Source: Octopus sinensis (taxonomy: Eukaryota). Taken from it: a stretch of 52,798 nt of DNA. This document shows, piece by piece, positions 4,380 to 6,560 of the stretch (positions are counted from its first letter, which is position 1; the number at the start of each line of letters is the position of its first letter). Below the pieces are notes generated by a model. It was given only the letters and a program-made list of their open reading frames with translations, was not told where the DNA came from and ran no database searches. Location: contig NW_021834149.1 in the NCBI RefSeq assembly GCF_006345805.1, forward strand, positions 1 through 52,798, given 5' to 3'. A program made the position numbers and the translations under genes.

Positions 4380-4570
4380 TGGTATTTTTATATAGACTTA
4401 AAATATGCCGATCACCATGCAATGACTAAAGAAAGTAGTCTAATGAAGGGGCATATAAGCCTCTTGCTCGGTGATCGCCATACGATTTAAGCCTATATAA
4501 AAATACTATTATTACTATTTATAGGATTGGATTGTATAATATGGCACCGTATAAAAAACATTCGTACCGA
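4380..4570. mobile_element. Inverted-repeat insert in (TA)n, probably PLE-derived; a related fragment lies at 6217-6292
   Basis: tggtatttttatatag..gatcacc (4380-4417) is inverted at ~4470-4508; the same left arm recurs at 6217. Confidence 0.5.
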
Positions 4571-4589
4571 AATATATATATATATATAA

Positions 4590-4856
4590 ATATTAAAATT
4601 ACTAAGTCTCTCTAAAGGAGATTACGGCAGCGTTACTGGATATTAATAGTTATCGCCATACTAATATGGCAGTCTAAATATAAGACTAAAGCTGTCGCTG
4701 ATTAGCTCCAAGAGGCCACCGCCTCTAGCTAGCTATATGACACACGAACCTGCGTCCATTACAACCTTCGAACAGGGGAGGACAGCCGCTTCACCTTGCT
4801 AGTCAGACATCTGCATACATGTTTCAGGGTTGTTGCCCTTTATCAATGCAGCGTAG
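4590..4856 (-). mobile_element. PLE/retrozyme-like non-coding fragment flanked by (TA)n
   Basis: Carries a hammerhead near its minus-strand 5' end; the body resembles the arms of the 14462-14807 inverted repeat (ctata..acacga.ctg.gtcc.t.a...gaaca.ggga). Confidence 0.7.
4811..4851 (-). ncRNA. Minimal type I hammerhead ribozyme, U3-A8 core variant
   Basis: Minus strand: ctgca TTGATAA aggg caacaa ccct GAAA catg TA | tgcag; 5 bp stem I, 4 bp stem II, palindromic CATG stem III, GUA triplet. Confidence 0.8.
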
Positions 4857-4888
4857 TATATATATATATATATATATATATATATATA

Positions 4889-5186
4889 CGGAGTAAACAC
4901 ATAAATGTGAAACAAGGTGGAAAAAAGATTACTCAAATACCAGTGGTAGAGTAATATGCTTTATTTAAAGCAGCAGAAAATTCAACAAAACCTGTTGGAC
5001 TTGTTTGATTGGTCCTTATTTGAAAGGATCAATCAAACAAGTCCATTTTTAAAGGTGTAGCGTTTATACTAGTCTGGATAGAATTGACATATCGGTTCTA
5101 TTCTAGCAAAAACTGTCCGACGAACGGCAACGTGAAACTCAGAGTAACAGGTTTTTTTGAATTTTCTGCTGCTTTTAAATAAAGTT
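4889..5186. mobile_element. PLE/retrozyme-like insert with an inverted junction, in (TA)n
   Basis: 4959-4996 is the reverse complement of ~5146-5183; contains two long hairpins and a hammerhead. Confidence 0.75.
5113..5150 (+). ncRNA. Minimal type I hammerhead ribozyme (U4C core)
   Basis: ctgt CCGACGA acg gcaa cgt GAAA ctc a gag TA | acag; GNRA loop on stem II; predicted cleavage after 5146. Confidence 0.75.
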
Positions 5187-5332
5187 ATATATATATATAT
5201 ATATATATATATATATATATATATATATTATATATATATATATATATATATATATATATATGTATATATATATATATATATATATATATATATATATATA
5301 TATATATATATATATATATATATATATACATA

Positions 5333-6103
5333 CAACTTATAAACGAGGGCTAAAGAAAATTATTTCTCTGCCAATGTGCTGATAACAGACTTTTAAATCG
5401 TCAATTTCCACACATTTACTCGCTACAGAAAACACGTAGAGCTGAAAACGGGGAAAGCCAGCCATGGCATAGAAATAATTTTCTTTAGCCCTTATTTATA
5501 AGTTGTTCATAATTTTAACCTTAAAGGTATTTTAATATGCTGCCACATTTTTTGATGGAATTTATTTCTGTAAAAAAACTTCATCCTTTATTAGTAGTAG
5601 ACTTATTACTATTCGCTATAGGGACTGGCAACCACTATAAGCTGTAGTGGCGGACAGTTCACACGTGTGCTGAGGCTGACCAAAGGATTTTATTTTTAGG
5701 TATATCTGGGGTACTTATATGTGCTCATGATTTTTGCTTCGGCTTTTTTTCATGGGCGCATATAAGTATCTTATTTATGTCTTTTCGTATTTTCTACTGA
5801 AGAGGAAAAAATCTATTATGAGATTAATTCCGAAATTGATTCAATATAGAAATAACGAACTTTTTTAAAAATTCTGTTGGCTAGCTTTCCTCGTTTTCAG
5901 CTGTACGTGTTTTCTGTAGCGAGTAAATAATATGTGGAAATTGACGATTTAAAAGTCTGTTATCAGCATATTGGCATAGAAATAATTTTCTTTAGTCCTT
6001 ATTTATAAGTAGTTTATAATGTTAACCTTAAAGGTATTTTAATATGCTGCTGCATTTTTTGGTGGAATTTTTTTCTGTAAAAAATCTTCATCCTTTATTA
6101 GTA
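5333..6103 (+). mobile_element. Retrozyme/PLE-like element: 507-bp unit with 132-bp direct repeats plus an inverted 5' segment, in (TA)n
   Basis: 5465-5596 is repeated at 5972-6103; 5335-5464 is the reverse complement of 5878-6010; internal hammerhead; no ORF. Confidence 0.85.
5784..5859 (+). ncRNA. Type I hammerhead ribozyme, canonical core
   Basis: ttcgt-at-tttcta CTGAAGA ggaa aa aatct attatg agatt aa ttcc GAAA ttg att caa TA | tagaaa-ta-acgaa; predicted cleavage after 5846. Confidence 0.9.
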
Positions 6104-6364
6104 TATATACATATATATATATATATATATATAATATATATATATATATATATATATATATATATAATATATATATATATATATTATATATATATATATA
6201 TATATGCATATATATATGGTATTTTTATATAAGCTTACAGCTTATGGCGATCACCGTGCAAGGACTAAGGAAAATAATCTAATTATGGGCTTATATATAT
6301 ATACATACACACACGCACACACACACATATATATATATATATATATATATATATACATATATAT

Positions 6365-6560
6365 AGTAAATCCAAAATAGAAGAATAAACACAAAAACAA
6401 CAACGCAAGGACGTGGTACACGTAAAGTATTAGCAAACGTTCAGGGAAAGAACGAAAGATGGTTTAACGTTTCGAGCAGGCGTTCTTCTTCAGAAACAGA
6501 GGAAAGTCCAATAGAAAGGAAGACGGAGGAAGAAAATCGCCAACGATTCACATGTGGTTA
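6365..6560 (-). mobile_element. PLE-like terminal fragment in (TA)n
   Basis: Contains a hammerhead; similar layout to 28400-28600 (gtattag...cg.tcagg...acgtttcgagc..g.tcttc..cagaaa). Confidence 0.65.
6462..6497 (-). ncRNA. Minimal type I hammerhead, slightly degenerate
   Basis: gttt CTGAAGA a gaac gcct gctc GAAA cg TT | aaac; one mismatch in stem II. Confidence 0.65.

Follow-up and report, generated by a model that had tools for sequence, protein, structure and literature searches.

How six short inserts came to lie side by side in TA microsatellites, and what they have in common, is the question raised by a 2.2-kb stretch of the Octopus sinensis genome (2.72 Gb). The stretch lies on a 52.8-kb contig that is AT-rich and dense in microsatellites; the whole contig, 52,798 nucleotides, was analysed and is referred to below as the window. 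A sequence-only reading of the window had proposed that (TA)n is a shared landing pad for several families of Penelope-like elements (PLEs) and retrozymes. In this study, the inserts, their families, and their insertion sites were characterized (Table 1). The stack is very probably made of six truncated retroelement copies of five families, likely pasted successively into a TA microsatellite by PLE enzymes, with the units lacking an open reading frame (ORF) borrowing these enzymes in trans.

Table 1. Features of the insert stack; positions are those of the window.
Feature	Positions	Strand	Description
Left (TA)n tract	4299-4380		With a short TG stretch
Insert 1	4381-4572	+	Copy with two arms, from the 320-bp tandem-unit family (tRNA-bearing, ribozyme-free)
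Insert 1, inverted arm	4381-4461		Short end
Insert 1, direct arm	4464-4572		Long end
Insert 2	4588-4857	-	Young ORF-less 360-bp tandem unit, truncated at its 5' end (putatively retrozyme-like)
Insert 2, hammerhead motif	4811-4851	-	Type I, U3-A8 core variant, palindromic stem III
Insert 3	4889-5186	+	Probable 3' end (pLTR) of a Hydra-clade PLE
Insert 3, inverted piece	4889-4996		71-nt tail and terminal piece
Insert 3, direct piece	5008-5186
Insert 3, hammerhead motif	5113-5150	+	Type I, core CCGACGA
Central (TA)n tract	5186-5332		Approximately 74 copies
Insert 4	5333-6103	+	ORF-less 510-bp tandem unit
Insert 4, inverted arm	5332-5463		Short end
Insert 4, partial unit	5465-5598
Insert 4, full unit	5600-6103		Long end
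Insert 4, hammerhead motif	5791-5852	+	Type I, canonical CUGAAGA core, 6-bp stem I, long stem II
(TA)n tract	6102-6217
Insert 5	6218-6295	-	Short 5'-truncated copy of the insert 1 family; terminus is the short end
Insert 6	6366-6565	-	Probable 3' end of an older PLE
Insert 6, hammerhead motif	6462-6497	-	Minimal type I, extra A before stem II

Repeat scans bore out the description of about six inserts parted by microsatellite. The spacers are (TA)n of approximately 16, 32, 147, and 116 nt and one mixed TA/CA tract of approximately 70 nt. Both orientations are present, as had been noted (inserts 1, 3, and 4 on the plus strand; inserts 2, 5, and 6 on the minus strand); because TA is its own complement, either orientation can occur. 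The six inserts represent five abundant families, with inserts 1 and 5 belonging to one family (83% identity over 47 nt, both mapping onto one unit). Three inserts, those starting at 4381, 4889, and 5333, each carry their own inverted arm. Identity to the best genomic copies was 97-99% for insert 2, 96% for insert 3, 92-94% for insert 4, 89% for insert 6, and 83-89% for inserts 1 and 5. Since these divergences differ (83-99%), the inserts point to separate insertion events over a long time. We infer that a single original (TA)n tract underlies all six. No empty allele of the stack site was seen.

For the family survey, each insert yielded 1,100-3,900 first-look candidates, 40 of which were scored and the best 30 taken; the loci are best matches and not random copies. 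The 145 non-self loci minus 7 duplicates left 138, and a central block was found in 136. An end was counted as a TA end when it lay at (TA)4 or longer, and random points served as the background.

The 3' ends lay at (TA)n in 123 of 181 cases (68%) against a background of 4.2%, and at any microsatellite in 152 of 181 against 10.3%. For the 5' ends, some of which are limits of the reference unit and not true ends, the count was 28 of 91 (31% vs. 4.2%). An unselected 1 Mb, sampled as 100 evenly chosen 10-kb stretches, gave 32 ends, and 15 of them lay at TA against a background of 4.6% (p = 2e-12). Enrichment of (TA)n flanks over background, the test set beforehand by the sequence-only reading, was thus found both in the selected loci and in the unselected megabase. 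The preference extends to AT-rich or microsatellite DNA rather than (TA)n alone, and 6 of 26 blocks of the 360-bp family lay in no microsatellite. Ten blocks had no microsatellite at either end, six from the 360-bp family and four from older families. Target duplications of 11-14 bp flanked five of the six copies of the 360-bp family (null expectation 1.6%) and none of the four older blocks. Because microsatellite-free copies carry target duplications, the data favour TA as a target rather than a tail. A (TA)n preference has been published for several PLE clades, an octopus Hydra family among them; inverted arms and tails are likewise known PLE traits.

The reverse relation is unlikely, namely that the elements made the TA tracts by adding or seeding a tail that later expanded, which would turn the TA flanks into a product. 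It would fit the higher frequency of TA at 3' than at 5' ends, the TA-like letters in which several element ends finish, the internal (TA)n of the insert 3 element, and the extra (GTA)n at the ends of some 510-bp copies. However, the variable 5' ends are enriched sevenfold as well, and the five duplication-flanked copies outside microsatellites have no TA tail. Copies also sit in CA, TAA, and TATC repeats, and at tandem junctions the unit runs on without TA. The idea is likely right in part, in that tracts expanded after insertion. TA as the target is the reading retained here.

Two observations concern the sequence next to the ends. In loci L064, L080, and L085, the fixed 3' end of the 510-bp family is followed by several extra GTA triplets before (TA)n, which resemble the product of a short template being copied repeatedly as reverse transcription begins. 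The 3' region of the insert 3 family has its own internal (TA)n of variable length (L011:1440-1475 and other copies), and because this region carries (TA)n, the element spreads its own target sequence.

A common insertion footprint was found. All five families have fixed 3' ends abutting (TA)n and variable 5' ends, and four of them have two fixed 3' ends 60-95 nt apart, a short and a long one. The insert 6 family has a single 3' end, with no two-armed or inverted copies among its central blocks. Of the two-armed blocks (49 in all), 36 were classifiable, with both ends on fixed sites; a short and a long end were combined in 34 of them (p = 1e-8 against 50%). The other 13 had an end at neither fixed site. 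The pairing of short with long held in nine of nine cases in the ribozyme-free 320-bp family. Inserts 1 and 3 were also considered as MITEs with terminal inverted repeats. This was rejected, as the arms are inverted truncated copies ending at the fixed 3' sites.

For PLEs, the available text of PMC11167929 explains an optional tail by two reverse-transcription start sites and describes how both strands are cut and extended at AT-rich DNA; the two fixed ends of the four stack families fit these two start sites. On this model, the GIY-YIG endonuclease would nick both strands of AT-rich DNA approximately 11-14 bp apart, and the reverse transcriptase would start inside the RNA, at one of the two sites. 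Copying from both cut ends would yield inverted arms. TA would be left on both sides of each insertion, re-expand, and stay a target. ORF-less units, with or without a hammerhead, would borrow the PLE enzymes in trans. A search of 72 PLE-bearing loci gave no autonomous partner for the 320-, 360-, and 510-bp families, so it is the shape of their insertions that suggests trans-mobilisation. The young Hydra-type frames in the same genome are a candidate enzyme for both the trans-mobilisation and the inverted-arm questions.

A search for autonomous PLE partners had been suggested, and two of the four hammerhead-bearing families could be tied to PLE frames; none was found for the 360- and 510-bp families. 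Stepwise extension upstream of insert 3 reached an endonuclease frame, and insert 3 sequence adjoins the endonuclease in 28 of 30 loci retrieved with that protein (the 30 include the query locus and a few duplicated regions). Locus L382 holds a complete element: (TA)n, an inverted tail and pLTR, the tail, a 727-aa frame, a 3' region with a hammerhead, and (TA)n. Insert 3 repeats this design in miniature, with 86% identity in the pLTR and 97-98% in the tail. The RWK, DKT, and CxCx5C motifs, which define the Hydra clade according to the text available of Craig et al. (2021; PMC8557442), are all present in L380, and L382 has single changes in two of them. Long motifs are common to the family frame and Hydra-1_Obim, an element given with a (TA)n preference in the supplement of that paper as far as available. 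A Pfam search of the Hydra-type frame returned no domain; its pairwise match to a Pfam-positive PLE was weak (E = 1e-7), and it had Atlas neighbours with GIY-YIG/RVT families. Taken together, the motifs, the weak pairwise match, and the Atlas neighbours identify insert 3 as the probable 3' end of a Hydra-clade PLE. In this family, 33 of 38 3' ends were at TA.

Insert 6 appears to be the 3' end of an older GIY-YIG PLE. Its longer copies continue into a CA-rich 3' region and then a decayed GIY-YIG endonuclease upstream (2 of 30 loci). The decayed endonuclease lies 1.2-1.4 kb upstream in L320 and L338, with tblastn matches to a PLE frame at E = 3e-6 and 4e-6. Neither an intact frame nor a reverse transcriptase (RT) was found in the loci of this family, for which the EN+ Nematis/Neptune type (a GIY-YIG frame with a zinc-finger linker, joined to the pLTR) is a candidate assignment. 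In L341, insert 6 sequence lies downstream of a young 781-aa PLE, but (TA)n and unrelated DNA stand between them and four full-length copies of that PLE lack insert 6; it was therefore rejected as part of that element. In L093:1070-1230, a different hammerhead-bearing PLE, with a Hydra-like endonuclease end upstream, ends in (TA)n and is followed by a copy of the insert 6 family.

Inserts 2 and 4 derive from ORF-less head-to-tail units of approximately 360 and 510 bp. Unit spacing was within 10 nt in 26 of 28 cases for the former and 27 of 28 for the latter, and the 30 loci of each family held 39 and 41 motif copies, respectively. By their sequence, both are retrozyme-like, with putative self-cleavage. 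No common terminus beyond neighbouring copies was found between the 320-, 360-, or 510-bp units and 72 PLE-bearing loci, which is a small sample. A young PLE family has intact 780-781-aa RT/GIY-YIG frames with Pfam matches (L342:674-5450 in G000:C1, also L343-L345 and L348), preceded by another frame of at most 479 aa, and its 3' end lies in (TA)n. Its hammerhead is of the U3-A8 type, and the stem III, ACAUGU, is identical to that of insert 2. This family is a candidate partner of the 360-bp family, with no further sequence in common.

Inserts 1 and 5 belong to an ORF-less tandem unit of approximately 320 bp (21 of 23 spacings within 10 nt). The unit contains a tRNA-like module with A and B boxes followed by a T run, and the module is conserved across copies; insert 1 lacks this part of the unit. 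The Rfam tRNA model matched in L133 at 28.9 bits (E = 3.5e-4; cut-off 29 bits), and ARAGORN at default settings called a tRNA in 1 of 18 loci. No conserved hammerhead core was detected in 57 unit segments from 28 loci on both strands, and Rfam reported no ribozyme family in this family.

The relaxed type I hammerhead scan confirmed motifs in four of the six inserts (2, 3, 4, and 6), two on each strand, and gave none in inserts 1 and 5. The observed scores were reached by 0, 1, 0, and 0 of 200 dinucleotide shuffles, respectively. The motif region was kept in 30 of 30 loci of each of the four families, and the stack copies have private mutations in their motifs. The four family units had no mutual blastn match better than E = 0.027, which agrees with the earlier remark that these inserts share no obvious sequence outside the ribozyme. 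The hammerhead calls are based on our own relaxed descriptor and on family conservation; Rfam, searched up to E = 10, found no such family in 4381-6565. Sub-threshold Rfam matches of microRNA models to microsatellites and inverted arms were dismissed as compositional. Free folding recovered the hammerhead stems for inserts 2 and 4 and not for inserts 3 and 6. The cleavage triplet of the insert 2 family is GUC, and the stack copy has GUA. In the insert 3 family the core is mostly CCGACGA, and the canonical CUGAUGA occurs in 4 of 39 copies as well as in L382, the full-length relative; because of this core, hammerhead activity in the family is doubtful. The motif of insert 6 has a palindromic two-pair stem III (dimer type).

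The five families had 16 occurrences in the unselected 1 Mb (1, 3, 6, 3, and 3), which corresponds roughly to 3,000-16,000 copies each. Six inserts in 2.2 kb are far above this mean density of 16 per Mb. Either a special hotspot beyond TA length, or a ribozyme cluster kept by selection, could be proposed for such a site, and we consider both improbable. Three strict hammerheads in 1.7 kb, where the genome has 12 per Mb (1-2 in shuffles), speak for a hotspot, as do copies of the insert 3 family lying just downstream of another PLE in 3 of 30 GIY-YIG loci. However, even at uniform density approximately two three-hammerhead clusters are expected genome-wide, and approximately 0.2 four-hammerhead clusters if relaxed motifs are assumed to be twice as dense. 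Foreign-family pieces around the 138 loci numbered 8 against 5.2 expected (p = 0.15), each Mb contains 26 runs of at least five short TA-bounded segments, and the private mutations in the motifs of the stack copies argue against selection. TA lay within 500 nt downstream of 7 of the 12 strict hammerheads, against 29% expected. The landing-pad proposal is accordingly supported, with a qualification: element ends are enriched at TA, but there is no sign of a special pad, since foreign families are not enriched. None of the sampled loci other than the stack had more than two foreign pieces. A mild hotspot effect at the stack is possible, because no other sampled locus came near six inserts. The stack is an extreme (upper-tail) instance of this general preference, at a TA-rich spot where inserts accumulated over a long time. 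In octopus, 31 recently active PLE families are reported in the available text of PMC13282606.

The adjacency of the six inserts rests on the assembly, because no public contig bridged a TA spacer of the stack; a contig of an independent run matches 4381-4558 with a single difference and spans the private inversion junction of insert 1. An assembly artefact, in which a small unplaced contig outside the large scaffolds joined repeat fragments through unbridged TA tracts, is very improbable, as the fixed ends and the internal layout of every insert are exactly those of its family, the inversion junction recurs in the independent run, and similar stacks of TA-bounded segments are common on large scaffolds.

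The window contains other repeats. At 32100-42400, same-strand LINE copies with RVT_1 in three minus-strand frames run at their 3' ends into long (TAA)n, which upholds the distinction that had been drawn between this second stack and the TA stack. Two of the copies are near-identical, and a restriction-enzyme-like endonuclease motif is visible by eye; we tentatively label these LINEs Dong/R4. Dong-R4 is active in an octopus, according to the portion of PMC13282606 available. Left of the stack, a TA-bounded segment at 3788-4298 starts with a tRNA-type SINE-like repeat (9 matches in 1 Mb). A degenerate tandem repeat with a period of approximately 95-197 bp occupies 161-696 at the contig start, and 43942-45113 contains three tandem copies (96% identical) of a 375-bp unit made up of TG and AAAG microsatellites.

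As a pile-up, the stack explains nothing new; its use is to bring together, in little space, five families that share an insertion footprint. Its least ordinary part is the 320-bp tRNA-bearing passenger, whose dependence on PLE enzymes is suggested by insertion shape. We propose tentatively, with slightly less than even confidence, that this family is Penelope-dependent, tRNA-bearing, and ribozyme-free, that the two-end tail signal alone suffices for trans-mobilisation by PLEs, and that the short/long rule, common to autonomous, hammerhead-bearing, and ribozyme-free families, reflects a dimeric enzyme that uses two different sites of one RNA to prime both cut strands. The family is a natural control for the role of hammerheads in PLE mobilisation. 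Searches of the freely accessible literature listed no description of a tRNA-bearing PLE passenger without a ribozyme.

Among known systems, Hydra-clade PLEs are the closest to the insert 3 element, which has in common with them a single short frame, a C-terminal GIY-YIG-type region, a pLTR hammerhead, an inverted 5' copy, a tail, and a (TA)n target. Unlike these, its tail is 71 nt rather than 30-40 nt, and many copies have the CCGACGA core. Hydra-1_Obim is a separate family, with motifs in common and visibly divergent sequence. For the minimal PLE hammerheads, the available text of Cervera and de la Pena (2014; PMC4209133) describes U3-A8 covariation, an additional base ahead of stem II, and a stem III whose palindromic sequence lets the RNA fold as a dimer. 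Insert 2 has their U3-A8 and insert 6 their extra base, whereas the U4C core of the insert 3 and 6 families and the AUA triplet of insert 4 are not met in that text.

Non-LTR retrozymes are ORF-less tandem units with a type I hammerhead (Cervera and de la Pena, 2020; PMC7229834, available text), and their derivation from PLEs has been proposed (Li et al., 2026; 10.64898/2026.07.22.740005, available text). Inserts 2 and 4 resemble the metazoan forms described in these texts at the DNA level: their ORF-less units measure a few hundred bp, and each unit contains a single type I hammerhead. Those forms also have long target duplications (above 4 bp), as does the 360-bp family; no sampled copy of the 510-bp family lay outside microsatellites. 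The 510-bp unit of insert 4 exceeds the 150-450 bp quoted there, and both families form short arrays (1-2 units) with PLE-type inverted arms and two fixed ends, for which these texts give no counterpart.

The 320-bp family can be compared with two systems. tRNA-derived SINEs carry a tRNA-like module with A and B boxes, and this module is what the 320-bp family has in common with them. The 320-bp unit is not built like a SINE: its module is internal to the tandem unit and followed by a T run, its 5' ends are scattered, and it has inverted arms and two fixed 3' ends that obey the short/long rule of PLEs rather than a LINE-derived tail. Like the non-autonomous Chlamys PLEs, such as MRC1, in the available text of PMC8557442, it is ORF-less, ribozyme-free, and arranged head to tail.
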